A stretch of DNA of 64,000 bases from Rhizophagus irregularis (Eukaryota): the NCBI RefSeq assembly GCF_026210795.1, contig NC_089433.1:4526001-4590000 (forward strand), written 5' to 3'. The notes below the pieces were generated by a model. It saw only the letters and a program-made list of their open reading frames with translations. It had not been told where the DNA came from and made no database searches. Below, piece by piece: positions 6,124 through 63,999 of the stretch. Numbering within the stretch: position 1 is the stretch's first letter; each line of letters opens with the position of its first letter. A program made the translations under genes and the position numbers.

Positions 6124-9100
6124 AAACAAGCTTTTCTATTTTTTAAAAAAAATTTCAAAATTAATACTATATATAATAATTAAGTATTAATGTGATAACA
6201 TCAGATATACTAAAAAAAGTAACTCACCATTATTTTGTATTTCAGTTTTTATCTCTGCAACTTTACACAATGAATTTTGGACTGTAGAATTTATGTCTGG
6301 TAAAGGTGACCTATTATTAAATTAATCACTATCATATTAGCTACATTAATATCTAACTTAATTATTCCTATTTATAATTCAAATTAATACCATTGAGCGT
6401 AATTAATATCAAGTTCAATTTCTCTTGAACTATACTCTAAGAAATATAAGAAATAAGAAATATATAACAATAAGTTTCAATTGAATTCTTAAATTATGTT
6501 TTGTACAATTTAACACATACCTTGTTTTATTGGAAACATTTCATTTAATGGTCTACTAGTATAAATCGCATTTGGGCATTGAATATTATTCACTGAATTC
6601 TGAGTAGTAGAATTTAATTCTGATAAAGATGACCTAAATATAAATATTTTTAAATTATTAATTGCATTAATGTCTGTTTTAATTATTTTGTAATTACATA
6701 TTAATACCGTTTAACATTGTTAATATCAAACTCAAGATCTTTTGAAATATACTCTAAAATATAGAAAATGTAGGATAAATTTTGTATATTATTAATGCTT
6801 AAAAATAATTATAACGTTAAGTATTATAAATAAGATAAAAAAATTAATACCTTGTTTCTTATTAAAAGTTGATGATGATAAACTAATAGATAATGACTCT
6901 GAGTCAGAGATTAAAGGATTTAATAATCTGCTAGTATAAATAGCTCCAGGATGAGAGTTTACGGCAAATCTAGGATCAAGTTTGTTTATCTTTATTAATC
7001 CCAATCGTATTTTTTCAGCTTGATTAAATTCATCATCTTCCATATTTACAGCTTGATTAATATGTGAATGTAAAATATTTTTTATTGCACATCTCCATAA
7101 AGCAATGGTTTTACGAATTTCTTCTATACGAGGTCTTTTTAAAGGATCAGAATCCCAACATTTTTTCATTAAATTACTAAAACATTTAGGAGTATCATCT
7201 GTGATTTCAGGTCGTTTTCCATCAATAATTTTATAAATAAGATCAATGTCATGGTCAAAATCAGCAAAAGGTTTACAACCTATCGTTAATTCCCACATAA
7301 TTATACCAAAACTATAAATATCTGATTCTTTTGAAAATTTGTTACCATCAAATATTTCTGGAGCGATATAAGGTATTACTCCATATATTTCATTATTTGA
7401 TGAAGTAACATTTGCAGGCTGTGATAATCCTAAATCTCCAATGTGCCATTTTTCATCAACTAATAATATATTTCCACTATGTAAATCTCTATGTATAAAA
7501 TTCTCTTTATGAATGCAATCAACTCTAAAAATAAAGTAAACAACTTTGATAGTTAGCCAACCTAATATTAATTGACGAGCACAAATTAAATAAATATAAT
7601 AATCACCCCCTTGAAATTTCCAGTAAAATAGTTAATTTATCTTTCCATGTAATATTTTTAAAATTGTTTTGTAAATAATTATGCAAATCTCCTCCATCTG
7701 CATATTGCATTATTATCATATGATCTTTTGTATTAGGATCTTGTGTAATACCATAATATTTAATAATATGTTCAAATCTATTATGATATTGAATAAATGA
7801 TTTTAACTAACATAAATTATAAGGTAGTTATTGGTTAATTTATTAAATAATAGAAATAAAAGATTAACTTTTTATATATTTACCTCATTAATAAAATATT
7901 TACTGATATTCTGTGATTTCAAAAATTTTTTTACAGCAACAATTTTTCCATTAGGTGATGAATTTATTTTCCAAACTGCTTTATAAATTATACCAAATCC
8001 TCCCTCTGCAATTCTTTTAAAATCTTTAGTTTTGGAATATTCAATCACTTTTATATTTTTCCGACTCGTCTCAATTCTATTTTTAATAAAATCATATATT
8101 TTTAATGGGTCATTGTCTTTATAAGTATTATTCATAAATTTAGAAATTTCATCATTAGTATCAATAGTAGAATTAAGAATTTCATCTATATTATGATTTC
8201 CATTGATACTAATAGGTTTCACTTTTTTGCATTTTATACATTGAGATTGGTTTGTAAATCCAAAAATAATATTTGTTGTTAAACAATATCTACATCCATT
8301 ATAAATTATAAAGCAATGTGAACACCATTTTTGACTGTCAGATTTATATTTTAACTTCTGCCTACAAACTATACAATCACTAAAAGTATCCCACCAAGGT
8401 AAATAAAGTATTGGAATATTTTTTTTGGTTAAGGTTGATTCTGTATATCCAGAAGAAACTGAATAGCAATCCAAACACATGAAAGAAATTTGGTGATTAA
8501 TTAATTTTCCACACTTACAACTTTCACTTTGAATTACCTTACTTTGTTCATTTATATCAAATGAATGATGTGTAATAATCTGTTTAAAGTATGAAATTTC
8601 AGAACAAATAATGCACCATTCTTGTATATTTTTTGTACAAACCCCCAAATTTCTCAGTTTATCATGTTCAGTACATTGAGTATTACTTGTGAATATATGT
8701 ACATCTACCGTATTTTGAGTTGTAAACTTTGCAAACTTAATGTACCAATGTAAGCAATATTTGCAATATTTTTGTTTAAACAGAAGTGTTAATGAATATT
8801 CATTTCTACATTGATGACATATATTCTCATTATTATTAAAAGGAATGAATATGATTGGAATAGAAAAATTTTCTTTACTTTCTAAATTTGAATGGGAAAT
8901 ATATTTTAGGTCAATATAATTAAGCTTACTTATAAATCCATATAATTTTAATAAGTTAGAATTTTTATCATTAACATATTTAACAATCCGATCGTGATTA
9001 ACAGCATTCATTTTTGTAGAAACAATAAAATTTTCCATAATATTTTTAGTATCAATAGTTATAAATGATCTTCTTTTACATTTTTTACATTTAGATTGAT

Positions 9101-10649
9101 TTGTAAATCCAAAAACAATATTCGTTGTTAAGCAATATCTACATCCAATATAAATTGTAAAACAATTTGAACACCATTTTTGACAATCATCTGATGCCTC
9201 AGAGGGTATATCATTTAAGATATGTTTACAAACAATACACTGCTCAATATTATACCACAATGATAAATAAAGAATTAAAATAACTTTTTCAGTTAAAGTA
9301 GATTCTATCCATTCAAAAGAGATTAAATAACATTTTGAACACAAACTAAACTCAGTATTGATTGATAAATTTTGCCGACCACATAGTGTACAATCCTTTA
9401 CATATTTAATTATTTCATTTTGTCTTTCATAATAATAATTCATATCAAATGAATATTTTGTAACTATTTGCTTAAAATATAAAATCTCAGAACAGTTCAT
9501 ACACCATTCTTGAATATTTTGTGTATATGATTCAATATTTTTTGATTCATGTTTAATACAATGAGAATTACTAGAATTATTTATATGCACATCTAAACAT
9601 ACATTTTTGTCACTTAAGTCCTTGTGATACCAATACAAACAATATTTGCAATATTTTTGTTCAAATAAGATTGTTAAAGAATAATTAAGTCCACAATAGT
9701 TACACCTATCCATATTATTACTAAAGGAAATAAATCGAATTTGTCCATTTTCTTTAATAGGATAAGAACGATTATCCGGATTTTGGTATTGTTTGGATAA
9801 TTTGATATTAGACATATACCTATATACTGTATTCACCAAATCTGATTCTTGTTTAATATTATTCATCCGATTAACAAGATTATTCATTTTAATAATATCA
9901 AAATTGTCTAAATTATACTCAATGCATGTAACGTTGATATTAATAACTCTTTTACATTTTCTACATTTAGATTGTTTTGTAATTCCAAAAATAATATTTG
10001 TTGTCAAACAATATCTACACCCTGTGTAAATTACATAACAATGTGAACACCATTTTTGACAGTCAGATTTATATTCTAAATTCATTTTACAAGCCAAAGT
10101 ACAAATACTTGAATTATCCCACCAAGGTAAATAAACAATTGGAATAAGTTTTTTGTCCAAAGTTGATTCTATCCATTCAGAAGAAGTAAAATAGCAATTT
10201 GGACATAAATCAAATAAATTATTGTAATCTTTCTTATATTCACATAATTTACATTTAGTTTCTTTAACTATATTCCATTTATTTTTATTCATTTCATTAT
10301 TTTCAAGAAAATTAAAGTGATCAAATAATATTATGTCTTTTGTAATTATTTGCTTAAAACATAAAATATTAGAATAACCATTGCACCATTCTTGAATAGT
10401 TTGTGTATCTTGAACTTTATTTCTTATGACATCCAAATATATATTGTTGTCAGTCAGTTTCTTAGCATAATCAAATAAGCAATTTTCACAAAATCTTTGA
10501 CAAAATAGTGTCTGAGAATAAAAACTTTTACAGTAAGCACAAACAAACGTATCGTTATCGAAAGGAATGAACAAAATTGGCACAGGACTGGATTTTAATC
10601 TTGGTGTACGATTGAAAGAGTTTTTATCGTTAGTACTTATAAGTTCCAT
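6041..10649 (-). CDS. Tyrosine-kinase-like protein kinase with a triplicated Cys-rich N-terminal region
   Basis: Exon 1 10649-7884 ends in AEGGFG...VAVKK. Exons 7806-7607 and 7524-6851 carry HRDLHSGNIL, GDLG, PYIAPE and DIYSFG. Small 3' exons lie at ~6754-6708, 6633-6521, 6436-6391, 6311-6227; the last exon runs from 6135 to TGA at 6043-6041. Confidence 0.85.
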
Positions 10650-11314
10650 GATATAGTTTATTTTATTGAATAATGAAGGAAGAAAATTTTGAAAAATTAA
10701 AAATTATGAAGATATTTATAATAGAATTTCGGAAAAATATCTCCGTAAAGAATTCCTCCTCAGAATTCCATGATGTATCAGGTATTTAAATAAGGAAATG
10801 ATCTGCAGTAAGTAAGAATTTTTTTTTGCCGATTATTTTTGAATACTGTGAATACTGTAAATAATTTTTATTTCTGACAATTTAATTTAAATTATTGCAA
10901 GAGATTATCATAATCATGTGTTAATCATATTACGCTCATTAATTTTATTATGATATTAAGTGAATTATTTACATTTCATAGTTAAATTTCTCGAAATGCA
11001 TTATAAATCAAAAATCCAGGATGTCGATCATCCGGACTGAAGATAGTTTTTGAACGTAGCTTAATGCCGTAATATACCTAGTAAATTTATTAATTATGAG
11101 GCGTAGTATTATATTTAGAATTAGTGTATAAATTTTAGTATTTAAAATTGTATGACGTTACAAATGCGTCCTACGGATTTGTTTATAGGTGAAGATCAAT
11201 GATCGACATATTGAATAAGATCCAAAAAATAACGTATAACTTGAAATTATTGAACGGGAACTATTGAGATATGAAAAGATACAAAAAGGGATTAAATTTG
11301 ACTTGATAAAATTT

Positions 11315-15209: not shown

Positions 15210-18200
15210 ATGGATCAATGTATCGACAAAGGTAATTATATAGCAGAATATATAATATAAAATTAGAAGTTAATAGGTTATCTTATAATTAAATAAAATT
15301 AATAATAACAGATAATGAAATTAATTATTATTTTTATTATATTCTTATGTAACTAAATAATTTATTTAATGATTAATAATACCATAGATTGTAAGTTATC
15401 AGTTACTTAAATTTTTAGTTTTTTTACTTTATTTATATTCAAATAACTAAATACTTTGTTTAAATAATTTTTTAATACTACAGCTAGTAAGTTACAATAC
15501 TTAATAATATTGTATTTAATATTACATTTATTTATTAATATTTTAATATAACTTAACTAATTATATTTTTAATTTAAATAAATAGATTGTAAGTGATATT
15601 TTAATTTATAGTAAATAGTATTTTTCTATTATATTTATATCTAACTAATTAATAATTGATAATACTACAGGGTGTAAGCTATATGATATCTATATTTCTA
15701 TATTATATAGTAATTTAAGCTAACTCAATTCTTTATTTAAAAATTATTTTGCAATTTCTTTTAGTGGGTAAGTTATTTATTTAATTCTATTATTACTTAT
15801 TGCTATAATAAACTAACTAAATTCTTTATTTAATAGATGGTAAGTTATAAATTAATTAACTAATTCTATTATTACTTATGGACATATATTTACATATAAT
15901 TTAAACTAACTAAATTAAAAATTATTTAAATAATATAGGATGTAAGTTATTTATTCTATTATTTATTGTTATAAGATTTGCATATAATTTAAACCAACTA
16001 AATTCTTTATTTAAAAATTATTTAAATAATATAGGGAGTAAGTTATTTATTTAATTCTATTATTACTTATTGTTATAATATTTACATATAATTTAAACTA
16101 ACTAAATTCTTTATTTAAAAATTATTTTAATAATATAGGTAGTAAGTTATTTATTTAATACTATTATTACTTATTGTTATAATATCTACATATAATTTAA
16201 ACTAACTAAATTCTTTATTTAAAAAATTATTTTATAGAAGGTAAATTAATTATTTAATTCTATTATTACTTATTGTTATACTAATATTTACATATATTTA
16301 AACTAACTAAATTCCTTATTTAAAAAATTTCTTTTAGCTAGTAAGTTATAAGTTATTTATTCAATTCTACTATTACTTATTGTTGTAATATTTAAATATA
16401 ATTCATATTAACTAAATTCTTTATTCAAAAAAATTATTTTGTAATTTCTTTTAGTGGGTAAGTTGTTACTTATTATTATAATATTTACATATAATTTAAA
16501 CTAACTAAATTTTTTATTTAATAGATCGTAAGTTATAAGTTATTTATTTAATTCCATTATTACATATTGTTATAATATTTACATATAATTTTAACTAAAT
16601 TCTTTATTTATAGCTCGTAAGTTATAAGTCATTTATTTATTTCCATTATTACTTATTTTTATAATATTTACGCATAATTTAAACTAACTAAATTCTTTAT
16701 TTAATAGATCGTAAGTTATAAGCCATTTATTTAATTCTATTATTACTTACTATTTTTATAATATTTACATATAATTTAAACTAATTAAATTCTTTATTTG
16801 GAAAATTATTTTGTGATTCTATTAGTTAGTAAGTTATAAGTTATTTGTTTAATTCTATTATTACTAATTGTTATAATATTTATATATAATTTAAATTAAC
16901 TAAATTCTTTATTTAAAAAATTATTTTGTAATTTCCTTTAGTGGGTAAGTTATTTATGTAATTCTATTATTACTTAATTGTTATAATACTTACATGTAAT
17001 TTAAACTAACTAAATTCTTTATTTACAAAATTATTTAAATAATATAGAGTGTAAGTTATTTACTTAATTCTATTATTACTTATTGTTGTAATAATTACAT
17101 ATAATTTAAACTAACTAAATTTTTATTTAATAGCCCGTAAGTTATAAGTTATTTGTTTAATTCTATTACTACTTGTTTTTATAATATTTATATATAATTT
17201 AGCTAATTAAATTCTTTATTTAAAAATTATTTTGTGATTTTTTTTAGTTAGTAAGTTATAAGTTATTTACTTAATTCTATTATTATTTATTATAATATTT
17301 ACATATAATTTAAACTAACTAAATAAAAATTATTTAAATAATACAGGGTGTAAGTTATTTATTTGATTCTATTATTACTTATGGTTATAATATTTACATA
17401 TATAATTTAAACTAACTAAATTATTTAATAGATCGTAAGTTATAAGTTATTTACTTAATTCTATCATTACTTATTGTTATAATATTTACTTATAATTTAA
17501 ACTGACTAAATTCTTTATTTAAAAAATTAACTAAATAATATAGGGTGTAAGTTGTTTATTTAATTATATTATTACTTATAATTACATATAATTGTAACTA
17601 ACTAAATTCTTTATTTAAAAAATTATTTAAATAATATAGGGTGTAAGTTATTTATTTAATTCTATCATTACTTATTTTTATAATATTTTAAACTAACTAA
17701 ATTTCTTATTTAATAGGTCGTAAGTTATAAGTTATTTTTAATTCCATTATTACTTATCGTTGTAATATTTATATAAAATTTAAACTGGCTAAATTTTTTA
17801 TTTTAATAGATAGTAAGTTATAAGTTGTTTATTTAATTCTATTATTGTTATAATATTTACATATAATTTAAACTAATTAAATTCTTTATTGAAAAAATTA
17901 CTATTTATATAGAGTGTAAGTTATTTACTAAATTCTATTATTATTTATTGTTGTAATATTTATATAATTAAACTAACTAAATTCTTTATTATTTTGTAAC
18001 TTTTTTTTAGTGGGTAAGTTATTTATTTAATTCTATTATTACTTATTGTCATAATATTTACATATAATTTAAACTAACTAAATTCTTTATTTAATTTGTA
18101 ATTTCTTTTAGCTGGTAAGTTATTTATTTAATCTATTATTATTACTTATTGTTATAATATTTACATATAATTTAAACTGACTAAATTTTTTGTTTAAAAA

Positions 18201-20640
18201 ATTATTTTGTAATTTCTTTTAGTTGGTAAGCTGTTTATCTAATTTTATTATTACTTATTGTTATAAATATTTACATATAATTTAAATTTAACTAAATTCT
18301 TTATTTAATAGATGGTAAGTTATTTACTTAATTATATTATTACTCATTGTTATATTATTTACGAATAATTTAAACTAACTAAATTCTTTATTTAAAAAAT
18401 TATCTAAATAATATAGAGAGTAAGTTATTTATTTAATTCTATTATTGTCATAGTAATATTTACATATAATTTAAACTTAATTAAATTCTTATTTAAAAAA
18501 TTACTTAAATAATATAGAAAGTAAGTTATTTATTTAGCTCTATTATTACTTATTGTTATAATATTTATATATAGTTTAAACTAACTAAATTCTTTATTTA
18601 AATAATATAGAAAGTAAGTTACTTATTTAATTCTATTATTACTTATTGTTATAATATTTACATATAATTTAAACTAATAAATTTCTTTAAAATTATTTAA
18701 ATAATATAGAGAGTAAGTTATTTATTTAATTCTATTATTACATATTGTTATAATATTTACATTTTAAATTAACTAAATTCTTTATTTAATAGATCGTAAG
18801 TTATAGGTTATTTATTTTATTCTATTATTACTTACAATATTTATATAATTTAACTAAATTTTTTATTTAAAAAATATAGCTCGTAAGTTATTTGTTTAAT
18901 TCTATTATTACTTATTGTTATAATATTTACATAATATCTAAACTAACTAAATTCTTTATTTAACAAATTATTTAAATAATGTAGCTCGTAAGTTATTTAT
19001 TTAATTCTATTATTACTTATTGTTATAATGTTTACATATAATTTTAGACTAACTAAATTCTTTATTTAAATAATATATATAGCTCGTAAGTTATTTATTT
19101 AATTCTATTATTACTCATTGTTATAATAATTACATATAATTTAAACTAACTAAATTCTTTATTTAAAAAAATTATTTAAATAACATAGCTTGTAAGTTAT
19201 TTGTTATTTCTATTGTTATATATTTTATATAATATTTATTTGTTAACTATTCTTTTATTTAAAAATTTCTATTACTTTAGTTGGTAAGTTGTGAAATATA
19301 ACTTATTATTATAAATATTTATACAAAAACTAAGATATATATTATCTTAAATTCCTATTTAAATTTTAGAGTAAGTGTTAATTTTAATCTTAAATATTAG
19401 TTTAAATTTTATTATAAACTTTAATATAATTTTAATTATTTAAATTTATAGATTTGGAAAAAGTGGAAATGAAATCATAGATGAAATTATTCTTGAAAAA
19501 AAGTTAAGATGGATTCCTTATAATAAATTTAATAATATTGAATTTCTTGATGAAGGAGGATTTGGTATTATATACAAAGCTATTTGGTTAAATAATAATG
19601 GAAATAAAGAAGTAATTCTTAAATGTCACAAGAATTTAAATGATAATTTAGTTGAATTTTTAAATGAAGTATGATGTTATGTTATTTTTTTAATTTAAAT
19701 TATAATTTATTTATATTAATATGTTTATTATTTTCTATAGTGGAAATATCATGGAAGCTGTTTAGATTCAAATGATATTATTCATTTTTATGGATTTACA
19801 AAAAATCCAGATACTTTGGAATATTTGGTAGTAATGGATTATGCAAACAAAGGTAATTTAAGAAGTAACTTAACAAGAATAATTGAAAGTGGTTGGGATC
19901 AAAAAGTTTTTATGCTGTATGGAATTATTTATGGACTTGGCTTTATACATGAACAAAATCTCATTCATTGTGATTTTCATGATGGCAATATTCTAAATCA
20001 TAATGAGGATAAAATTTATATTAGTGATTTGGGATTATGTCAACCCATAAAATCATCTTTAGAAGAGTCTAAAATTTGTGGCGTTATACCATTTATGGCA
20101 CCTGAAGTTTTAAGAGGCAAACCTTATACTCCAGCTAGCGATATATACAGTTTTTCTATGATTATGTGGGAATTTACATCTGGAGTACCACCATTTAATG
20201 ATAGAGCACATGATATTCAACTTAGTTTAAGTATTTGTAGAGGTGAACGTCCTGAAATTATTGAAAATACTCCACAATGCTATGTAGATTTGATGAAAAA
20301 ATGTTGGGATGGTGATCCATTAAAAAGGCCATCTTCTGGGAAAATTTTAGAAACTATTGAAAAATGGGTTTTATATCCTAAAGACAAGAAAATTGAAGAT
20401 ATTAACGAAGAATTAAAATGCAATATTATGGAATTTATAAATGCACCAATTGGGCATAATAATCTTGCTACTGAATCTCACTCACAAGCTTGCCATACAA
20501 GTCGCTTACTTAATTTTACTAGTAAACAATTGAATGAAATTCTTGAAAGTAAAAATTCACAAACTTATTATGCAACCCATTCTTCTACTGGTATAACTGA
20601 AGATTTGGATGATTGTATAATTGAAGATACAAGTAATTAG
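15210..20640 (+). CDS. Tyrosine-kinase-like kinase A with N-terminus encoded by 41 three-nt micro-exons plus one 1-nt exon
   Basis: Exon 1 15210-15231 (MDQCIDK+G); micro-exons 15388 to 19283; 1-nt exon 19370; exon 19452-19668 (FGKSGN..WIPY..EGGFG..VILK); exon 19741-20640 (HCDFHDGNIL, DLG, PFMAPE, DIYSFS). The kinase part is certain; the micro-exon part is inferred from splice signals and frame consistency. Confidence 0.85.
15232..19451 (+). repeat. Tandem array of ~70-120-bp homologous introns (array A)
   Basis: Unit consensus GTAAGTTATTTATTTAATTCTATTATTACTTATTGTTATAATATTTACATATAATTTAAACTAACTAAATTCTTTATTTAAAAAATTATTT...TAG, followed by a variable triplet. Confidence 0.95.
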
Positions 20641-30926: not shown

Positions 30927-32367
30927 TCAAATTTTTTCACCATATAAAAACTTTCCAATGCGTTTGACGGTGTTATCATAAGCACCACCCCTACTTAATG
31001 CCCTAGTTGCCGCATAACCATGCATATTAGCATCATCTACCACGAATTCTGTTTTTATATTATTTTGTTGTAATTTTCCAATAAATGCTGTAACATCATC
31101 CAAAAAAATGTCAAAACTTCCAACGCAAGCAAATACTTTCGGTAAACCCAAAAGTTGACTTTCAAATAATGGAGAAATCATTGGACAAGATGGAAGAAGA
31201 TTTGAGTCGCCAATATATAAATTTGTGCTATTGTTGAACCAGGTAACATCTGTGATGTCATTCGAAGCATTGTCGATGAATGATCGAGTATTTCCTAGTC
31301 CCTGAAAACCCCAAAAAGAATTATAAAATGAATAATTAGCAAGAATACTACGTATAAAAACTATAAAATCATAAATTACTTACGGATACTGTAGGAGAAA
31401 GTAAAATAAGAGCAGCAGGAGGATCGGTATATGCTTGATTTATAAGATGTATTGCGCTAATTATAGCCAAATTTCCGCCTGAACTATCACCAGCTAAAAA
31501 AAAAAAAATATTTTTGAATAAAATTAATTTAGATTAAAATATTAATTTAAATAAATTATCAAAATATGTACCAAAAGCAATTTTGGATGGGCTAATTTTC
31601 TTTTCATTAATAAGCCATTGATAACACTCCAACATATTATCTCTAGCAGCTGGGAATGGATGCTCAGGCGCCAATACTATAAAATTAAAATTTCGATATT
31701 CGTTATAGATTATACATTCAAAAACATAATACGTTAATATTTAATTAACTTACGATAATCTAGTGATAAGATTTGTGTTCTAACGCCATAACTCAATTTC
31801 CATGCTTTAATCCAATCGATGTATGTATCTAAGAGAAATAAAGCGTCACCGAAAACGAAGCCACCACCTATTTCGTTCAAAACAAATTAATATTATTGAA
31901 AAATTTTTTACTTTTTTCGATTCTTTACTTACCATGAGCGTATAAAATAATCATATCAGCATCCTTTCCAATTTCTGCACGATCAACACCATCAGCAATT
32001 AAATATCCTTCCCATCCATCTTCTTCGTTACTCGTATTCAATTTCTTTACCCAATGATTTTGTCTTCCACGAGTGAATTTTTCAGATCCACTAAATAATT
32101 TTCTTAATAGCCATAGTGGTAAGTATAACTCAAAGGTTTTAAGGATGGTCGCTGTTATACGTTGATATAAGGATGGTGTCAAACATTCTTTATCAAAGAA
32201 TAAAGACGTGAAATATGCAAGAATTGCTAGTGGAATCTTAAATGCTAAAATAATACATATATAGAGTTGATTTAATTAATATCTCAGGAATAAATAATTT
32301 CTTATCGACATTTTTATACTTTACCCAAGACTAAGGTACACAAAAGTACAGATAAAATGAAATCCAT
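30927..32367 (-). CDS. Alpha/beta hydrolase, HSL family (paralogue of 2880-4406)
   Basis: ATG 32367 (MDFILSVLLCTLVL); same intron positions as the paralogue; HGGGF, GDSSGGN, DIFLDD, MHGY; stop at 30927. Confidence 0.88.
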
Positions 32368-39101: not shown

Positions 39102-41159
39102 TTAATTAGTATAGTTCTTATTCCATTGAGCTGTTTTATCATTATCTCGGAAATCTAAAATCATTATAATTATTTAATTATTTTAATTTCAATTATAACA
39201 ATAATTATGAAATTTACTTACCATTATTTGAATTTACTTTTAAATTTCCAATTACACTGGATAATTTTTTAGTATTATCATCAAAATCTATTAAAAGATG
39301 ATAAATCGGGATTTAATTTTATTTTAATTTCAATTGTAATAATAATTATAAAATTTACTTACCATTATTTGAATTTATTTTTAAGTTTTCAATTACACTG
39401 GGTAATTTTTTAGTATTATCATCAAAATCTATTAAAAGATGATAAATCGAGATTTTAATTCAAAGTGTTCAAAGTTAATTTTACAATCATGTTAAATTAT
39501 ATTACACTTACCATTAGGAATACTAAAGAAATAATTACTATGGAATTCTTATAAAAAAAACATATCTTAGAGATATTTATATAATAATATACATTTAAAA
39601 ATTAGTTAAATTTATAGTAATACCTTTTTGTCCTGTTTATTTATTTAAAAAAGAAAAAGATAATTATTAATTGAAATTTTTTAAAATAATAATATAGTCA
39701 TTACATAAACATACCTTCACTTGAATTCGGGAATTGATAAATATTACTGGTATTACCTCGGCTTGTAGGGATATTTAATTGCAATTGCGAACTATATGAT
39801 TCTTGGTTGCGTTTCAAAGCTTCATCTAGATAATATGATGCACTTATCTTTCTTATCTTTATCCAAAGATCATTTATATTAGGTCTTTTTTTCGGATCAA
39901 CATTCCAACATTGCTCCATCAAATTTTTATATTCTATAGGAATATGTGATATTATTTTTGGTCTCATTCCATTTATTATACTCATTGCAAGATAATAATC
40001 ATGCTTATAATTACTATACGGAGATTGCCCAAATGCAATTTCCCACATTAGCATCGCAATACTATAAATATCAGATGTATAATTATATTCTTTTTTAATT
40101 ATAACTTCGGGTGCTATATATGGTAAATTTCCATAGATGGATCTTAATGGCTCATTTACTGGACCACAAAATCCAAAATCACATATAAACCATAAATCTA
40201 AGTATTTTGAATATAATATGTTTCCAGAATGTAAATCTCTATGGATTTTATTTTCTCTGTGAATACTATCCAGAGCATTTATTATATCAACGGTAATTTT
40301 AATTCTTTCTTTCCAAGTAAGATTATCATGGTTTTTTATTAAATATGTTCTTAAATCCAAATCCATTTGATGCATTACAAGGAAATAGTTTTGAGTTCGT
40401 GGATCTTGCGTTAGACCATGACATCGAACAATTTCAATCCATTTATTACTCATAGTTAAATGTGATTTTGCCTTTTAATTTAAAAATATTTCAAAAAAAA
40501 AAAAGATTTTATTAGAATAAATTAAATAAATTATATTTAATAATTTTTGTAATTTATAAATTACATACCTCATCAAACCAAGTTCTATTTGCACTTATAA
40601 TATTTTCTAACTTTTTAAGGATCACTTTATGCGTACCTATCCTTTTTAATTGATTTTCTTTAATATCCCATTCGTTATATTGTCCATCTATCCATTCAGC
40701 TAAATAAATTTCGGAGAATCCACCTTTAGTTAAATATTCAATTTTTTGTAAATTATTGTACGGGATCCATTCAACTATCATACTTGGATGAAACGTTTCA
40801 GATTGACATTTCTTTATTAAATCATCAATATCATCATTCCCTGATGTCCAATCTAAAGAGTTTATTTCCAAATAGTTTCGAACGCAATGTTCACAATATA
40901 AAGTTGCTAAACATTCTTGTTCGCAATTTTCGCACGTCCTTTTTTCTCCTTCACCATAAAGAATTTTATTATAATCATAATCTTCATTTAATAATTGCTC
41001 CACTTCTAATCTTTCATTTTTCGTAAGATATTTATTGGTATTAATGGTTTGTATTCTGAATTCATGTCGTTTGGTAATGTTATCGTGGAAATTATAATCA
41101 GTTAACGCGCATACTTTGTTAAATGCATTTATAGCATTAACATTATAAATATAGCCCAT
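39102..41159 (-). CDS. Tyrosine-kinase-like protein kinase with small duplicated 3' exons
   Basis: Exon 1 41159-~40569 (CxxC pairs, WTSGN, KGGFSEIY, VILK); exon 2 ~40472-39715 (HRDLHSGNIL, DFG, PYIAPE); 9-nt exon 39632-39624; exon 39547-39512; two near-identical exons ~39427-39362 and ~39287-39222; last exon ends in TAA at 39104-39102. Confidence 0.85.
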
Positions 41160-41674
41160 AACTAATTTGTTGAATTACTTATTTTCGTAACTCAAAAAAA
41201 AAGCGAAAAGCAAGAAAAAGGATTTCCGTTTTATTTACGTTTATTTATACTTAATTTCATCGGATTTAAAACTCCGTCATTCAAATGGATTATTAACATA
41301 TAATTTTAATACAGTAGTATTTTAAAATATAATTATTTGATAATCTTAATCTCATGAGTCATGGTCGATAAAAGGAAAATCTCATAATGTACTACTGTGA
41401 ATTAAAATTAAAAGATAGAAAGAGTATATTTTTATTTTTGTGTCATTCATGGAAATATTCTTTATTTGTTTAAAAATGAATGCGAACGTTTAAAGTAGTT
41501 AGATTCATGTTGATCAAAACAAACAACTTTTGCTTTTAGTATGATCTACAACACGTTTTTCATATGCGTTTGTAACGAGAGTTACGTACTGATAGGGGTA
41601 TTGTTTATTTTTCGTGTCCATTGTTACAAAATGTTACAATAATAGTATTCACAGTTTTTCGAAAACAATAGGTA

Positions 41675-54550: not shown

Positions 54551-57500
54551 AATCAAGCATGGCTAGACAAAATGTCACCCTGTGTCTGACATTTTACCTG
54601 TTTATGCTTGATTTTCATCTGTCCCGTGCTTGATATTTATCTGTACGTGCTTGATATTTTATCTGTACGTGCTTGATGTTTTATCTGTATGTGCTTGATA
54701 TTTTATCTGTCACGTGCTTGTTGTTTTATCTGTACATGATGCTTGATGTTTTTATCTGTTCGTGCTTGGCATTTTTATCTGTCCGTGCTTGAGGTTTTAT
54801 CTATCTGTACTTTTGTCCAATTGTATTTGATTTTAATTTTATCTTGTCAAAAATTAGTTTCTTTGTCAGCATAGGGGTGATATTTTGTCAATCACATGTT
54901 TTTTAAGTTTAGCATAGTTTTTACACGAAGAATTTTTTTTTATTTTATTGGCTTTTTTTTATAAAACAATTTTTGTAGAGAATTTTTATTTTTAATATAG
55001 GCAAAGGTTTTTTTTGATAAAATTCTTTTGGAATTTTTTTTTAATAAAAAGACTTTTTTTTGATAAAAAATTTTGTTAGAGAATTTTTTATTGATAGGGA
55101 AATTTCTGAGTTTTTCTTCGATGGATAATTTCGTTAAAAAATTTAAATTTCATTGGAGATTTTTTTTTTAATAAGATTTTTTTTTTTGATAGAGAATTCA
55201 TTGAGAATTGAGAACTTTTTTTTTTTGTAGAATTTTTATAATAGGAAAGATTTTTTTTGATAAAATAATTTTGTCAGAAACTTTTTTAGCAAATGAGATT
55301 TTTTTTTGATAGAGAATTTCGTTAAGAATTTTTTTTTTAATAGGAGGGAGTTTTCCTTGATAAAGAATTTCTTTTGGGAATTTTTTTTAATAGGTGAAAG
55401 TTATTTTTTATGGAGAATTTTATTAGAGAATTTTTTTTAATAGGGGGATTGTTTTTGATAGAGAATTTTATTAAAGAATTTTAATTAATAGGAAGATAAA
55501 TAATTTCGCTGAGAATTTTTTTTTTAATGGGTAAAATTTTTTTTTTTTTGATAGATCATTTCATTAGTAAATTTTTTTAACAGAGAAGATTTTTTTTTGA
55601 TTAAGAATTTCATTAGAGAATTTCTGGTTGAAAAGTTTTTTTATTTTTTTGATGGAGAATTTTGTTAGAAGTCTCAATAGAAAATTTATTGAAAATAGTT
55701 TTTTTTAATAAGGGTATCGAGAATTTTGGCTTGATATTTTTTTTTTTAATAAAGAATTTCATTAGATAGAGAGCTTTTTTTTAAAAAAATTGATTGAAAA
55801 TTTATTAAATTTTACAATTTTAATAAATTTTTTTTTTTTTTAATGGATATTATAAAATAAATGGTTTGCTGGTAGTTAAAGCTCTGCATGAGCTGGCTCG
55901 AGCTGAGCCAAGGCATAGCTCACGCTCAGCTCGAAAATTAAGAGAGCAGAGTCCGCAATGAACTGAACCACGGCAAATATTGGCTCAAGCTTTTTGAGCC
56001 AAGCCGAACCATAATAAATCCTGGCTCAAGCTGAGCTGGACTTGAGCGGGCTCGAGCTGGCTTGAGCTTTACCTAAAAAAAAAGAGAGAAATGGCGTTAA
56101 TGATGTTTTATAACACCATTACACAGCCACACACTCACCAAACAACACCTACCGCATATTCCATAGCCGGAGAGATGAAAAGGAGTGATGGGAGACGAAA
56201 AGGAGCGATGGGAGATGAAAAAAATTTTCTTACAAAATTTTTTATCAAAAAAAATCTTTTTATTATTGCCGTTTTCAAAATTACTGACAAATTCCGATTT
56301 GCGAGGTTTGATATATGATTTTTTGTATAACAAAAGTGAATCACATTTTTACGCGAATTTTTAATATTTTCATGTCAAATTTTTTTGTGAATCATCAAAT
56401 TCAAGATAAAATGTGTACCAACGCAAAATTTTAGCATATATTTAATATAAAAATTTTGGACTTTTACTATGCAGATATCATTTATTATAGTTATTTATAT
56501 ATAAAAATAAAGTGAATCACATTTCTGCATGAATTTTTAATATTTTCATGTCAATTTTTTTTTGTGAATCATCAAATTCAAGTCAAAATGTGTATCAACG
56601 CAAAATTTCAGCATATATTTCATATAAAAATTTTGGACTTTTACTATGTTAATATTATTTATTGCAATTATTTACATATAAAAATAGTGACATAGAAAAG
56701 TCCAAATTTTAAATGAAATATATATTGAAATTTTGCCTTGATATACACAATGTCTTGAATTTGATGATTCACAAAAAAATTTTAATATAAATATATTAAA
56801 AATTGATGTAGAAATGTGATTCACTTTATTTTTATATATAAATGACTGTAATAAATGATATCTGCATAATAAAAGTCCAAAATTTTTATAAGAAATATAT
56901 ACTGAAATTTTGTGTTGATACACATTTTGACTTGAATTTGATGATTCACAAAAAAAATTTGACATGAAAATATTAAAAATTCATGCAGAAATGTGATTCA
57001 TTTTATTTTTATATATAAATAACTACAATAAATGATATCTACATAATAAAAGTCCAAAATTTTTATAAGAAATGTATACTGAAATTTTGCGTTGATACAC
57101 ATTTTGACTTGAATTTGATGATTCACAAAAAAAATTTGACATGAAAATATTAAAAATTCAGAAATGTGATTCACTTTATTTTTATATATAAATGACTATA
57201 ATAAATGATATCTGCATAGTAAAAGTCCAAAATTTTTATATTAAATATATGCAAAATTTTGCGTTGATACACATTTTATCTTGAATTTGATGATTCACAA
57301 AAAAAATTTGACATGAAAATATTAAAAATTCGCGTAAAAATGTGATTCACTTTTGTTATACGAAAAATCATATATCAAACCTCGCAAATCGGAATTTGTC
57401 AGTAATTTCGAAAACGGCAATAAAAAAAATTTCAAAAGAAATTCTATCCTATCAAACAAAGCCTTTGCCTATATTAAAAATAAAAATTCTCTACAAATTT

Positions 57501-58138: not shown

Positions 58139-61100
58139 ATGGGTCAATGTATTGGTAAAGGTAAAAATCGTATATATAGTATGAACATTTGATACAATAA
58201 GAATTTTAAAATTTTTAACAAATTGACAATATAATAAAACTAGTTTCTGGTAGTGTTAATAAAAAAAATGGCTCTGAAGAATCTGAAGGAAGTACCGAGG
58301 AATATGAAGGTATATTAAACAAGCTGAAATATTAAAATACTTATCTATAAATAAACCTATATATAATATATAACTAACTAAATTATATAAAATCATATTA
58401 AATAATTTAGCTCGTAAGTTAATAGGTTGTTTTATAATTAAATAATAACGGAATTACTTATTATTTTTACTATATTCTATGTAACTAAATATACTATAGT
58501 TTGTAAGTTATCAGTTATTTAAATTTTTAGTTTTTTACTTTATTTATATTTACATAATATTCAAATAACTAATAAATTCTTTGTTTTAAATAACTAATTA
58601 ATTATATTACAGCTGGTAAGTTATAATATTATATTTAATATTATATTTATTTATTAATATTTTACTATAATTTAACTAATTATACTCCTAATTTAAATAA
58701 ATAGATTGTAAGTAATATATTCAATTTATAGTAAATACCTTTCTATTATATTTATATCAACTAATTAAGAATTAATAATAATTCAGGGTGTAAGTTATAT
58801 GATGTCTATATTTCTATTATTTATATAATTTAAGCTAAATTCTTTATTTAAAAAATTATTTGTAATTTCTTTTAGTTGGTAAGTTATTTATTTAATTCTA
58901 TTTTACTTATTGTTATAATATTTACATATAATATAAACTAACAAAATCCTTTATTTAAAAAATTATTTTAATAATATAGGGAGTGAGTTATTTATTTAAT
59001 TCTATTATTACTACTTCTTTACAGAAACTTCAAGAATGGCTTAATGCGCAGTAACTGCATATATGTAATTTCTTTACAATTGCATAATGTGGTCACTATG
59101 TATTTATAACGCAGTTACCACGCATTAAGCCATCGCTACGATCTTGAAGTTTCTGTAAAGTTATTGTTATAATATTTACATATATTTAAACTAACTAAAT
59201 TCTTATTTAAAAAATTATTTAAATAATATAGAGAGTGAGTTATTTATTTAATTCTATTATTACTTATTATAATAATATTTACATATAATTTAAACTAACT
59301 AAATTCTTTATTTAAAAAATTATTATATAGATGGTAAGTTATTTATTTAATTCTATTATTAATCATTGTAATAATATTTACATATAATTTAAATTAACTA
59401 AATTTTTTATTTAAAAAAATTATTTAAATAACATAGCTCGTAAGTTATTTATTTAATTCTATTATTACTTATCATTATATAATTTAAGCTAAACTAACTA
59501 AATTCTTTATAAATTATTTTGTAATTCTTTTAGATTGTAAGTTATAATTTATTTATTTAATTCTATTATTACTTATTGTTATAATATTTATATATAATTT
59601 GAACTAACTAAATTTTTATTTAAAAAATTATTTAAATAATATAGGGAGTAAGCTATTTATTTAATTATACTATTCTTATTGTTATAATATTTACATATAA
59701 TCAAACTAAACCAACTAAATTCTTTATTAAAAAATTATTTTGTAATTTCTTTTAGATTGTAAGTCATAATTATTTATTTAATTCTATTATTACCTATCAT
59801 AATAATATTTACATATAATTTAAATAAATTCTTTATTTAAAAATTATTTTTGTAATTTCTTATACTAGTTGGTAAGTTATTTATTTAATTCTGTTATTAT
59901 TTATTGTTAAAATATTTACATATAATTTAAACTAACTAAATTCTTTATTTAAAAAATTATTTTATAGATGGTAAGTTATTTATTTAATTCTATTATTACT
60001 TATTATTATAATATTTACATATTATATAAACTACTAACTAAATTCTATATTTAAAAAATTATTTAAATAATATAGGGTGTAAGTTATTATTTATTTAATT
60101 TTATTATTACTTATTGTTATAATATTTACATATAATTTAAACTATCTAAATTCTTTATTTAAAAAATTATTTAAATAATTTAGGGTGTAAGTTATTTATT
60201 TAATTCTATTATTACTTATTGTTATACTAAATTCTTTATTTAAAACTTATTTTGTAACTTTTTTTAGTTAGTAAGCTATTTGATTAATTCTATTATTATT
60301 TGTTGTTATAATATTTGCATATAATTTAAACTAACTAAATACTTTATTTAAAAAATTATTTTATAGATGGTAAGTTCATATTTAATATCTATTATTATTA
60401 TTTGTTATAATATTTACGTATTATTTAACTAACTAACTAAATTTATTATTTAATAGATCGTAGGTTATAAGTTATTATTTAATTCTATTATTACATATTA
60501 TTATAATATTTACATATAATTTAAATTAACTAAATTCTTTGTTTAATAGATCGTAAGTTATAACTTATAAGTTATTTATTTAGTTCTATTATTACTCATT
60601 GTAATAATATTTGCATATAATTTAAACTAACAATTCTTTATTTAAATTATATAAATATATAGGGTGTAAGTTATTTATTTAATTCTATTATTACTTATTG
60701 TTATACTAAATTCTTTATTTAAAACTTATTTTGTAACTTTTTTTAGTTAGTAAGCTATTTGATTAATTCTATTATTATTTGTTGTTATAATATTTGCATA
60801 TAATTTAAACTAACTAAATACTTTATTTAAAAAATTATTTTATAGATGGTAAGTTCATATTTAATATCTATTATTATTATTTGTTATAATATTTACGTAT
60901 TATTTAACTAACTAACTAAATTTATTATTTAATAGATCGTAAGTTATAAGTTATTATTTAATTCTATTATTACATATTATTATAATATTTACATATAATT
61001 TAAATTAACTAAATTCTTTGTTTAATAGATCGTAAGTTATAACTTATAAGTTATTTATTTAGTTCTATTATTACTCATTGTAATAATATTTGCATATAAT

Positions 61101-63999
61101 TTAAACTAACAATTCTTTATTTAAATTATATAAATATATAGGGTGTAAGTTATTTATTTAATTCTATTATTACATATTGTTATAATATTTACATACATTT
61201 TAAACTATCTTAATTCTTTATTTAAAAAATTATTTTGTAATTTCTTTTAGTTGGTAAGCTATTTATTTAATTCTATCATTGCTTATTGTTATAATATTTA
61301 CATATAATTTAAACTAACTAAATTCTTCACTTGAAAAATTATTTAAATAATATAGGGTGTAAGTTATTTATTTAATTCTATTATTACTTTATATTGTTAT
61401 AATATTTACATTTGTTTAAACTAACTAAATTCTTTATTTAATAGATCGTAAGTTATAAATTATTTATTGCTTACATTATTACTTATTGTTATTATTATAA
61501 TATTTACATATAATTTAAATTAACTAAATTCTTTATTAAAAAATCATTTAAATAATATAGAGAGTAAGTTATTTATTTAAATCTATTATAGTATTATTAC
61601 TTATTATTATAATATTTACATATAATTTAAACTAACAAATCCTTTATTTAAAAAATTATTTTAATAATATAGGGAGTGAGTTATTTATTTAATTCTATTA
61701 TTACTACTTATGATATTTACATATATTTAAACTAACTAAATTCTTATTTAAAAAATTATTTAAATAATATAGAGAGTGAGTTATTTATTTAATTTTATTA
61801 TTACTTATTATAATAATATTTACATATAATTTAAACTAACTAAATTCTTTATTTAAAAAATTATTATATAGATGGTAAGTTATTTATTTAATTCTATTAT
61901 TAATCATTGTAATAATATTTACATTTAATTTAAATTAACTAAATTCTTTATTTAAAAAAATTATTTAAATAACATAGCTCGTAAGTTATTTATTTAATTC
62001 TATTATTACTTAGTATCATTATAATATTTACATATAATTTAAGCTAAACTAACTAAATTCTTTATTTAAAAAATTATTTTGTAATTTCCTTTAGATTGTA
62101 AGTTATAATTTACTATTTATTTAATTCTATTATTACTTATTATAATAATATTTACATATAATTTAAACTAACTAAATTCTTTATTTAAAAAAATTATTTT
62201 ATAGATGGTAAGTTATTTATTTAATTCTATTATTACTTATTGTTATAATATTTACATTTAATTGAAACTAACTATTTAATTTCCTTTAGATGGTAAGTTA
62301 TTTATTTAATTCTATTATTACTTATTGTGATAATATTTACATATAATTTAAACTAACTAAATTTTTATTTAAAAATTATTTAATAATATAGCTTGTAAGT
62401 TATTTGTAATTTTATTGTTATATATTTTATATTTATTTGTTAACTGTATTCTTTCATTTAAAATTTCTATTACTTTAGTTGGTAAGTTGTGAAATATAGC
62501 TTATTATTATTATATATATTTGTACAAGAACTAAGACATATATTATCTTAAATTCCAATTTAAATTTTAGAGTGAGTGTTAATTTTAATCTTAAATTTTG
62601 TGTCAATTTTATTATGAACTTTAATTATTTAAATTTATAGATTTGGAAAAAGTGGAAATACAATTATAGATAAATTTATCCTTGAAAAAAGATTAAAATG
62701 GATTCCTTATAATAAATTTAAAAATGTTGAATATCTTAATGAAGGAGGATTTGGTACTATATACAAAGCTATTTGGTTAAAAAATAATGAAGATAATAAA
62801 GAAGTAATTCTTAAATGTCATAATAATTTAAATGAAAATTTAAATGAATTTTTAAATGAAGTATGATAGTATATTATTTATTTTTTTCAATTTGAATTAT
62901 AATTTACTTATATTAATATATTATTATTTTTTATAGTGGAAATATCATGAAAGATGTTTAGATTCAATTGAAATTATTTATTTTTATGGATTTACAAAAG
63001 ATCCAGATACTTTAAAATATATGGTAGTAATAGATTATGCAAACAAAGGTAATTTAAGAGGAAACTTAACAAGAATAATCAAAAATAATTGGGATCAAAA
63101 ATTATATATGTTGTGTGAAATTATTTCTGGACTTAATAGTATACATGAACAAAATCTTATTCATTGTGATTTTCATGATGGTAATATTTTAAATCATAAT
63201 GAGGATAAAATTTATGTTAGTGATTTAGGATTATGTCAGCCTGTAAAATCATTTTTGAAAGAGTATAATATTTATGGTGTTGTACCATTTATGGCACCTG
63301 AAGTTTTAAGAGGCAAATCTTATACTCCAGCTAGTGATATATATAGTTTTTCTATGATTATGTGGGAATTTACATCTGGTACGCCACCATTTAACAATAG
63401 AGCACACGATATTCAACTTAGTTTAAGTATTTGTAAAGGTGAACGTCCTGAAATTATTGAAAATACTCCACAATGTTATGTAGATTTAATGAAAAAATGT
63501 TGGGATGAAGATCCATTAAACAGGCCATCTTCTAAGGAAGTTTTAAAAACTATTATAAAATGGATTGGTCTTCCTTCTAACAAGAAAATTAAAGATATTG
63601 ATAAAGAATTAAAATGTAATATTATGGAATTTATAAATGCACCAATTGGGCATAACATTCTTACTACTGAATCTCATCCACAGGCTTGTTATACAAGTCG
63701 CATACTTGATTTTACTAGTAAAAAATTGAATGAAATTCTTGAAAGTGAAGATTTGAATAGTTGTATAATTAAAGATTTGAAGTCATTAGGTATGTAATAT
63801 AGTATATATAAAAATTAATCTTGCAAATCATTTTTGTGAAATTAATTTATTATTTAATATTAAAACAGATAAAAATACTAGTAAAAAATTGAATGAAATT
63901 CTTGAAAGTGAAGATTCACAAACTTATTATGCAAGCCATTCTTCTACTGGCATAACTGAAGAGTTGGATGATTGTATAATCAAAGATACAAGTAATTAG
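58139..63999 (+). CDS. Tyrosine-kinase-like kinase B with N-terminus encoded by 40 three-nt micro-exons plus one 1-nt exon
   Basis: Exon 1 58139-58160 (MGQCIGK+G); exon 2 58244-58309 (66 nt); micro-exons 58411 to 62481; 1-nt exon 62571; exons 62641-62860, 62937-63789, 63869-63999 (TAG). Close paralogue of kinase A. Confidence 0.85.
58310..62640 (+). repeat. Tandem array of homologous introns (array B)
   Basis: Same unit consensus as array A; every unit is GT(A/G)AG...CTAAC/T...AG followed by a triplet. Confidence 0.95.
59017..59160. mobile_element. 144-bp MITE inside an array-B intron
   Basis: Perfect 19-bp TIR CTTTACAGAAACTTCAAGA, continued by ATGGCTTAATGCG..TAACTGC; TT on both flanks; absent from the duplicated unit at ~61676-61772. 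Confidence 0.85.

Follow-up and report, generated by a model that had tools for sequence, protein, structure and literature searches.

A single-base exon that sets the reading frame at the end of a three-base exon array in a Rhizophagus irregularis kinase gene

The stretch of DNA considered here, which we call the window, comprises 64,000 nucleotides of Rhizophagus irregularis (contig NC_089433.1, positions 4,526,001 to 4,590,000 of the forward strand). When it is scanned for sites in which an AG is separated by 1 to 6 nucleotides from a GT belonging to a strong donor, two dense runs appear, both on the + strand. The first is made of 41 three-base units and a single A, from 15388 to 19370; the second of 40 three-base units and a single A, from 58411 to 62571. 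Each run joins a very short first coding exon to exons for a kinase. The parts of the two genes are as follows, those of gene 2 being predictions made from its sequence.

Gene 1, first coding exon: 15210..15231, + strand; 22 nt, ending in phase 1; a transcript contig follows 15177-15231 free of mismatches and departs at the GT.
Gene 1, array of 41 three-base exons: 15388..19283, + strand; introns of 67-115 nt that are tandem-repeat copies; 124 letters in runs X1, X3 and X5.
Gene 1, last three-base exon, TTG: 19281..19283, + strand; completes a Phe codon and supplies a Glu codon with its first base.
Gene 1, intron upstream of the one-base exon: 19284..19369, + strand; 86 nt, with 0.90 identity to its gene 2 counterpart and 0.64 to the core array introns.
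Gene 1, one-base exon A: 19370..19370, + strand; middle base of the Glu codon, taking phase 1 into phase 2; the X1 contig shows two A's.
Gene 1, intron downstream of the one-base exon: 19371..19451, + strand; 81 nt, GT..AG.
Gene 1, first kinase exon: 19452..19668, + strand; Gly-rich loop and VILK lysine.
Gene 1, second kinase exon through the stop: 19741..20640, + strand; Pkinase / PK_Tyr_Ser-Thr; joint 19668->19741 in three of four runs.
Gene 2, first coding exon: 58139..58160, + strand; 22 nt, phase 1, starting Met-Gly-x-Cys.
Gene 2, predicted symmetric exon of 66 nt: 58244..58309, + strand; acidic Ser/Glu stretch, missing from gene 1.
Gene 2, array of 40 predicted three-base exons: 58411..62481, + strand; internal block duplications.
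Gene 2, predicted one-base exon A: 62571..62571, + strand; frame open only with the A.
Gene 2, kinase exons: 62641-62860, 62937-63789 and 63869-63999 (stop), + strand.

Translation of the kinase exons displays a Gly loop, the VILK lysine, an HCDFHDGN loop and an APE motif, features that are typical of kinases. The Met-Gly-x-Cys start of gene 2 presumably resembles a lipid-anchor motif; gene 1, unlike gene 2, starts Met-Asp. Among Pfam families, the kinase exons match only Pkinase and PK_Tyr_Ser-Thr, with ABC1 below threshold, and match neither NACHT nor ankyrin. In protein searches they find many R. irregularis proteins named 'kinase-like domain', and the second kinase exon of gene 1 is 100% identical to an annotated one (P0002, 303 aa), which begins at that very exon. 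Such a domain with many close Rhizophagus paralogs would place the genes, as far as sequence can tell, within the kinase-like (TKL) expansion of AM fungi; tyrosine-kinase-like genes are indeed described as expanded in R. irregularis (PMC4219462).

Several other features were noted in and around the two genes. The first intron of gene 1 (15232-15387) is long, 156 nt, and contains an apparent collapsed unit at the place where gene 2 has its 66-nt exon and more three-base exons. At its other end, gene 2 has an additional last exon (63790-63999) duplicating a C-terminal stretch, and in gene 1 a donor immediately follows the stop codon. About 800 bp upstream of gene 2, at 56333-57354, a 177-bp repeat occurs as a tandem pair and an inverted tandem array. 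At 6792-10703 (-) and 39701-41174 (-) lie two more kinases from this broad family, whose N-terminal regions are Cys-rich and which have no micro-exon array. Candidate micro-exons of 6 nt and 5 nt with strong donors are found at 31759 and 31388 (- strand), between ORFs of one gene, presumably hydrolase-like.

The single A stands in the context TTTTAG-A-GTAAGT at 19370 and TTTTAG-A-GTGAGT at 62571, each time with an AG acceptor on one flank and a GT donor on the other, and both sites are thus where the preliminary description of this DNA had put them. The motif TTAGAGTRAGT (TTAG-A-GTRAGT) has exactly two matches in the window, which are these two sites; 0.08 matches per window are expected by chance, and none of 100 shuffles reached two. 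The phases described earlier also held: in both genes exon 1 has 22 nt and ends in phase 1, every array exon has 3 nt, and the first kinase exon (starting at 19452 in gene 1 and 62641 in gene 2) requires phase 2. With the single A, the frame of gene 1 is open over 420 aa and 45 exons, of which the part outside the kinase exons is a leader of 50 aa, and the predicted frame of gene 2 is open over 470 aa and 46 exons. When the A is omitted, the frames stop after 57 aa (gene 1) and 78 aa (gene 2). It had been proposed that the A sets the frame by completing a Glu codon drawn from three exons; the frame is open only with the A, and the transcript contigs of gene 1 agree. Both intron bases adjoining the A at 19370 are G, and sliding of either neighbouring splice site cannot yield an A.

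A bypass was also considered for gene 1. Entry through any other AG within 19284-19480 does not yield an open reading in the right frame, and within the kinase exons no Met occurs ahead of the Gly loop and the VILK lysine; alternative acceptors at 19289-19464 and an internal start were both rejected.

Evidence from transcripts bears on gene 1. Assembled contigs of 6 of the 24 listed runs were compared with it: five are RNA-like (X1, X2, X3, X5 and X13), a status that is presumed and supported by missing GT..AG introns, and one (X19) covers the introns. These are contigs, not reads, which drop rare variants and give no isoform ratios. In three of four runs, from three studies, exon 1 is joined to the kinase exon (15231->19452, GT..AG) with 124 letters between them, that is, 41x3+1. 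The runs are X1, X3 and X5 (contig depths 81.7, 78.6 and 12.4), and in each of them one contig spans the entire array unbroken. That of X1 has 0 mismatches over 55 + 217 + 438 nt and has also lost the 72-nt kinase intron. The 30 of its 124 letters displayed, those just ahead of 19452, equal the predicted last 30 array letters and differ from the A-less prediction; they spell the last ten micro-exons in genomic order, with two A's at the junction. Two A's ahead of TTTGG were what the preliminary description expected of a cDNA, and for gene 1 the X1 contig has them.

A second kind of contig joins 19370 to 19452 (GT..AG) with letters of the upstream intron still attached, in X5 (depth 4) and X13 (depth 13.7), which means that the donor just after the A, at 19371, is in use. 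In these short contigs, with 20-28 letters on one side, the downstream intron has been removed on its own, and removal of the upstream intron is seen only in the fully spliced form; they could instead come from a close paralog or a retained-intron isoform. X2 and X13 have no unbroken contig across the array, their contigs ending 28 and 2 letters ahead of the kinase exon, and paralogous transcript contigs in both runs also finish with TTG-A ahead of a kinase exon. For X19, with depth in 28 of 29 bins, no joint of the 15231->19452 type is listed. No skipped form, with one A, appears among the contigs of the five RNA-like runs, in which low-level skipping would be invisible. The single-base exon at 19370 of gene 1 is real, spliced and frame-setting.

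The three-base exon arrays are nevertheless the larger finding, rather than the single A, and for gene 1 full inclusion of the array is seen in three runs. Their spacers are AT-rich tandem repeats of ~100 bp; the donors are of GTAAGT type, the acceptors are YAG, and a branch motif like CTAAC is often present. In gene 1, 43 introns spread 124 coding nt over 4.2 kb. The introns of its core are most similar to gene 2 introns at other positions (0.71-0.97). At the two ends, four introns at the start and three at the finish pair with their gene 2 counterparts and resemble the core less (0.62-0.69, shuffled controls giving about 0.5-0.6). The array of gene 2 contains block duplications of ~479 bp that repeat short peptide motifs. 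One of its introns, of 249 nt, carries an insertion of ~150 bp (~59016-59161) in which inverted repeats are nested, their arms measuring 33 and 23 nt; it is miniature-transposon-like and leaves the splice sites untouched. Asp, Asn, Tyr, Leu and Trp are frequent among the residues encoded by the arrays, which are placed between the first exon and the kinase and vary between paralogs; by analogy with the Tuber genes treated below, we would guess that this segment serves to recognise partners or non-self. Each of the 81 array exons in the two genes is symmetric. Skipping a single exon would create a stop in 1 of 41 cases in gene 1 and 2 of 40 in gene 2, and among ordered skip junctions 65 of 903 and 35 of 861, respectively, would do so.

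It had been suggested that the TTG exon that precedes the single A may be conserved because its loss would place a T-ending unit next to the A and create a stop. Skipping it does give TAA in both genes, and that part of the claim stands. As the whole reason for TTG we rejected stop avoidance, which needs merely a last base other than T, while TTG with the A yields Phe-Glu in all five readable cases (the two genes, locus L003 described below, and the paralog contigs in X2 and X13). The Phe so formed aligns with a conserved Phe five residues ahead of the Ser in the F-x-x-W-T-S-G-N motif of the family. Constraint on the protein, together with an effect of the array edge, accounts for the TTG exon at least as well as stop avoidance.

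Metagenome contigs searched with the first kinase exon provided 43 related loci, which are homologous and include some duplicates, so that counts among them are not independent. The one-base site is present in four of them (L001-L004), 74-95 nt upstream of the kinase-exon match. In these four, and in the window genes, the acceptor lies 10 nt ahead of the Ser codon of (K/T)SGN. Fourteen other loci have their acceptor 38 nt ahead of the Ser, in phase 1, and none of them has the one-base site; ten show at least two three-base exons upstream, with a maximum of 18 visible per locus. As 38 = 1 + 10 + 27, the short and long starts of the kinase exon differ by nine whole codons. Presence in 4/4 phase-2 loci and 0/14 phase-1 loci argues that the one-base exon is a frame adaptor. 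Two loci break the rule: in the available DNA, an array stands without a compensating exon in L010, whose acceptor is 46 nt ahead of the Ser and which carries an 8-nt duplication, and in L015 (36 nt), and we read both as putative decayed copies. In L026 and L027 the acceptor is at 29 nt and in phase 1, L006 offers just 40 nt of upstream sequence, and the other 20 loci are without an array.

Some individual loci deserve mention. L004 has the one-base exon with a disrupted unit at the place of TTG; an internal duplication there (~130-170) has changed the array unit adjoining the one-base exon, which can be read as three bases with a weak donor or as an exon of 36 nt, and the frame is kept in both readings. 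In L011 the three-base exons TAA (~715) and TAG (~2198) are tolerated, the array being read in phase 1. In L005 and L019 the first three bases of the phase-1 kinase exon run into a hexamer resembling a donor, as they would in an array unit that had been read through; this may hint at an origin of the array by tandem duplication of the exon start.

In a tree of 24 rows, the six genes with the one-base exon form one clade (100/100); 11 loci having no usable second kinase exon were left aside, and the root between the two array types is not fixed. The longer exon start retains F-x-x-W-T-S-G-N, which it shares with relatives that have no array, and this suggests that the short start and the one-base exon are derived. 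Reading phase, too, leaves a trace in the arrays, a sign of selection on frame. Across 20 loci and the two window genes (one duplicate locus omitted, the loci being related and not independent), the 185 array junctions contain no stop when read in phase 1. Shuffling exon order leads one to expect 7.5 +/- 2.2 stops, and none of 5000 shuffles came as low as zero; read in phase 2, the same junctions contain 32 stops.

The named proteins nearest to the phase-1 locus L008 belong to Funneliformis geosporum (67% over 55% of the query) and Rhizophagus (52-58%), so that the arrays likely reach beyond R. irregularis. Of 39 annotated homologs that have the kinase-start motif, 13 show Ser-Lys ahead of it and 5 show Leu-Glu. 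These pairs would be what a gene predictor reads from AG-A-GTAAGT, in which case the one-base site would be common among paralogs, including those of R. diaphanus. A 5-nt exon at 19370-19374 followed by a later GT, as some predictors seem to read, was rejected for gene 1, where it would make 128 letters, not 124. None of the N-termini printed for the protein-search matches shows the correctly spliced Phe-Glu junction.

How, then, should the single A be understood? We consider it probable that it is a spliceosomal one-base exon closing the chain of 41 exons and leading from phase 1 to phase 2, likely a constitutive frame adaptor and not a switch. For gene 1 this is backed by observation of its inclusion, of the order of the last ten exons, of the total length and of the use of the donor. 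The preliminary description had suggested that skipping could make the exon an on/off switch. In a fuller form of this idea, under some conditions the exon would be skipped, or the preceding intron retained, leaving a 57-aa product, likely nonsense-mediated decay, and the kinase off. Skipping would truncate both products, retention of the upstream intron gives a stop, and contigs from which only the downstream intron has gone occur in two of the five RNA-like runs, that of X13 with a depth of 13.7 against 22.5 for the kinase-exon contig; the Tuber arrays discussed below are also reported as alternatively spliced (PMC4986451). Yet no one-A junction is listed in the five runs, three of which (X1, X3 and X5) have the full array in an unbroken contig, and skipping as a switch thus found no counterpart in them. 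Moreover, the X13 contig breaks 2 letters ahead of the kinase exon, where spliced and retained forms would diverge, and not 1 letter ahead, as a skipped form would have it; and in relatives the presence of the exon follows the phase of the acceptor, which frame repair explains without regulation. Regulation of this kind is, in our view, improbable.

Splicing might alternatively generate diversity from the array, as in the nank genes of Tuber, with subsets of exons skipped in each mRNA and the one-base exon as an obligatory closing piece. The symmetry of all 81 array exons and the few stops that skips create would allow it. A contig of X2 breaks within the array end, and one of X3 connects a start resembling exon 1 with the kinase over no more than 97 letters, showing mismatches that make it look like a paralog. 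The same full 124-nt form as an unbroken contig in three studies would be unexpected if skipping isoforms were abundant, and we hold this alternative unlikely. It is scarcely conceivable that the extra A does not come from an exon at all but from non-templated insertion, an intronless copy or an assembly artefact, the repeat being a satellite. The presumed status of the runs speaks for such a view, against which stand a match with no other letters over all three aligned segments, the 124-nt length with 30 letters exact, the use of the donor at 19371, the lack of a listed joint of this kind in X19, where the introns are covered, flanking G's that leave no room for sliding, and a site that tracks the acceptor phase in relatives.

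One-base exons have precedents. That of Arabidopsis APC11 is constitutive, and its authors propose that introns are removed one after the other; their discussion recalls that for the 9-nt exon of potato invertase the downstream intron is reported to be removed first (PMC4674806). The CYP621A genes of Fusarium contain a one-base exon (PMC12940212), and 13 such exons are described in 13 genes of Coprinopsis cinerea (PMC12230235). The preliminary description overstated their rarity when it called them very rare. As far as these sources describe them, the present case is alike in that one base between AG and GT joins a phase-1 to a phase-2 boundary, is found in transcripts and was missed by annotation. 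It differs from APC11 and CYP621A, which are single cases per gene, in closing 41 consecutive three-base exons, and in having a sister subfamily which is without the one-base exon and differs in exactly the acceptor phase.

For the arrays, the closest parallel is in the nank (NACHT-ankyrin) NLR genes of Tuber melanosporum, with mini-exons the size of a codon, tens in number, that are extensively alternatively spliced (Iotti et al., 2012, as reported in PMC4986451, PMC13449251 and PMC3689799). Tens of codon-sized exons in tandem (41 and 40 here), an expanded gene family and a mycorrhizal host genome are common to both, to judge from these accounts. The phylum is another one, and here the array forms the N-terminus of a kinase whose exons have no NACHT or ankyrin match. 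In contrast to the alternative splicing reported for nank, the dominant contig of gene 1 carries all exons in three runs, contigs being apt to hide rare isoforms; and the passages on Tuber nank mention no closing one-base exon. The micro-exon genes (MEGs) of Schistosoma, with many exons of 3-81 bp (PMC10526429), likewise assemble coding sequence from many very short exons. As described there, they encode secreted proteins, their introns reach 5 kb and their exons are of mixed size; here the exons are of exactly 3 nt, the repeat introns of ~100 bp, and the product is a kinase, presumably not secreted. The one-base exon belongs with the single-nucleotide spliceosomal exons, and the array works like those of nank without belonging to that family.

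Both elements are thus known separately. In the open literature covered, neither a one-base exon nor an array of codon exons is described for kinases of AM fungi. The main text of the preprint on the long-read R. irregularis genome (10.1101/2022.10.19.511543) does not contain the word 'kinase', and its passages on exons do not speak of micro-exons. In the listed public models of R. irregularis kinase-like genes, unlike the structure found here, the N-terminus is missing or misread.

The frame adaptor that we prefer would work as follows. The two introns flanking the A would not be handled at once but sequentially, the downstream one first, and the partly spliced contigs fit this order. With the downstream intron out, the A would head a large exon of the ordinary kind by the time the upstream intron is cut. 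In evolution, the one-base exon would have become fixed, as a derived trait, in a single kinase subfamily, where the kinase exon would have lost a net 27 nt of its older start, going from 38 nt ahead of the Ser to 1+10. Insertion of an intron may have cut off the first base from the rest of the old exon, along with the 27-nt loss, a route requiring no out-of-frame intermediate; or a three-base exon may have shrunk while the acceptor shifted. At the DNA level, the core of the array would gain, lose or shuffle codons singly with each ~100-bp repeat, so that the N-terminal segment could vary freely as the end units, including the one-base exon, stay fixed.

A broader reading can be offered tentatively, as a possibility against which the chances stand. 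Membrane-anchored kinases of AM fungi would carry a recognition segment encoded one codon per intron repeat, unequal recombination would make of it a germline generator of self/non-self diversity, and splicing would proceed processively from the kinase end, seeded by the one-base exon. Were this true, recombination would add, remove or reorder single amino acids without ever shifting the frame, and the one-base exon would be both a frame lock and the start of an ordered splicing cascade over 43 introns.

The main interest lies in the whole array and in matched subfamilies with and without the one-base exon. Gene 1 offers a natural, transcript-supported substrate of 43 consecutive introns around 3-nt and 1-nt exons, which makes it possible to test how the spliceosome handles exons too small to define, and in which order neighbouring introns are removed. 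The sister subfamily, which has no such exon, serves as nature's own control on why the exon exists and by what route one arises. Among the expanded kinases of R. irregularis, one subfamily appears to be mis-annotated, its variable N-terminus missing or misread in the listed models. Finally, as far as the accounts of Tuber go, codon-exon arrays in two unrelated mycorrhizal fungi, in NLRs of Tuber and kinases of Glomeraceae, point to a recurring route for the diversification of signalling proteins.
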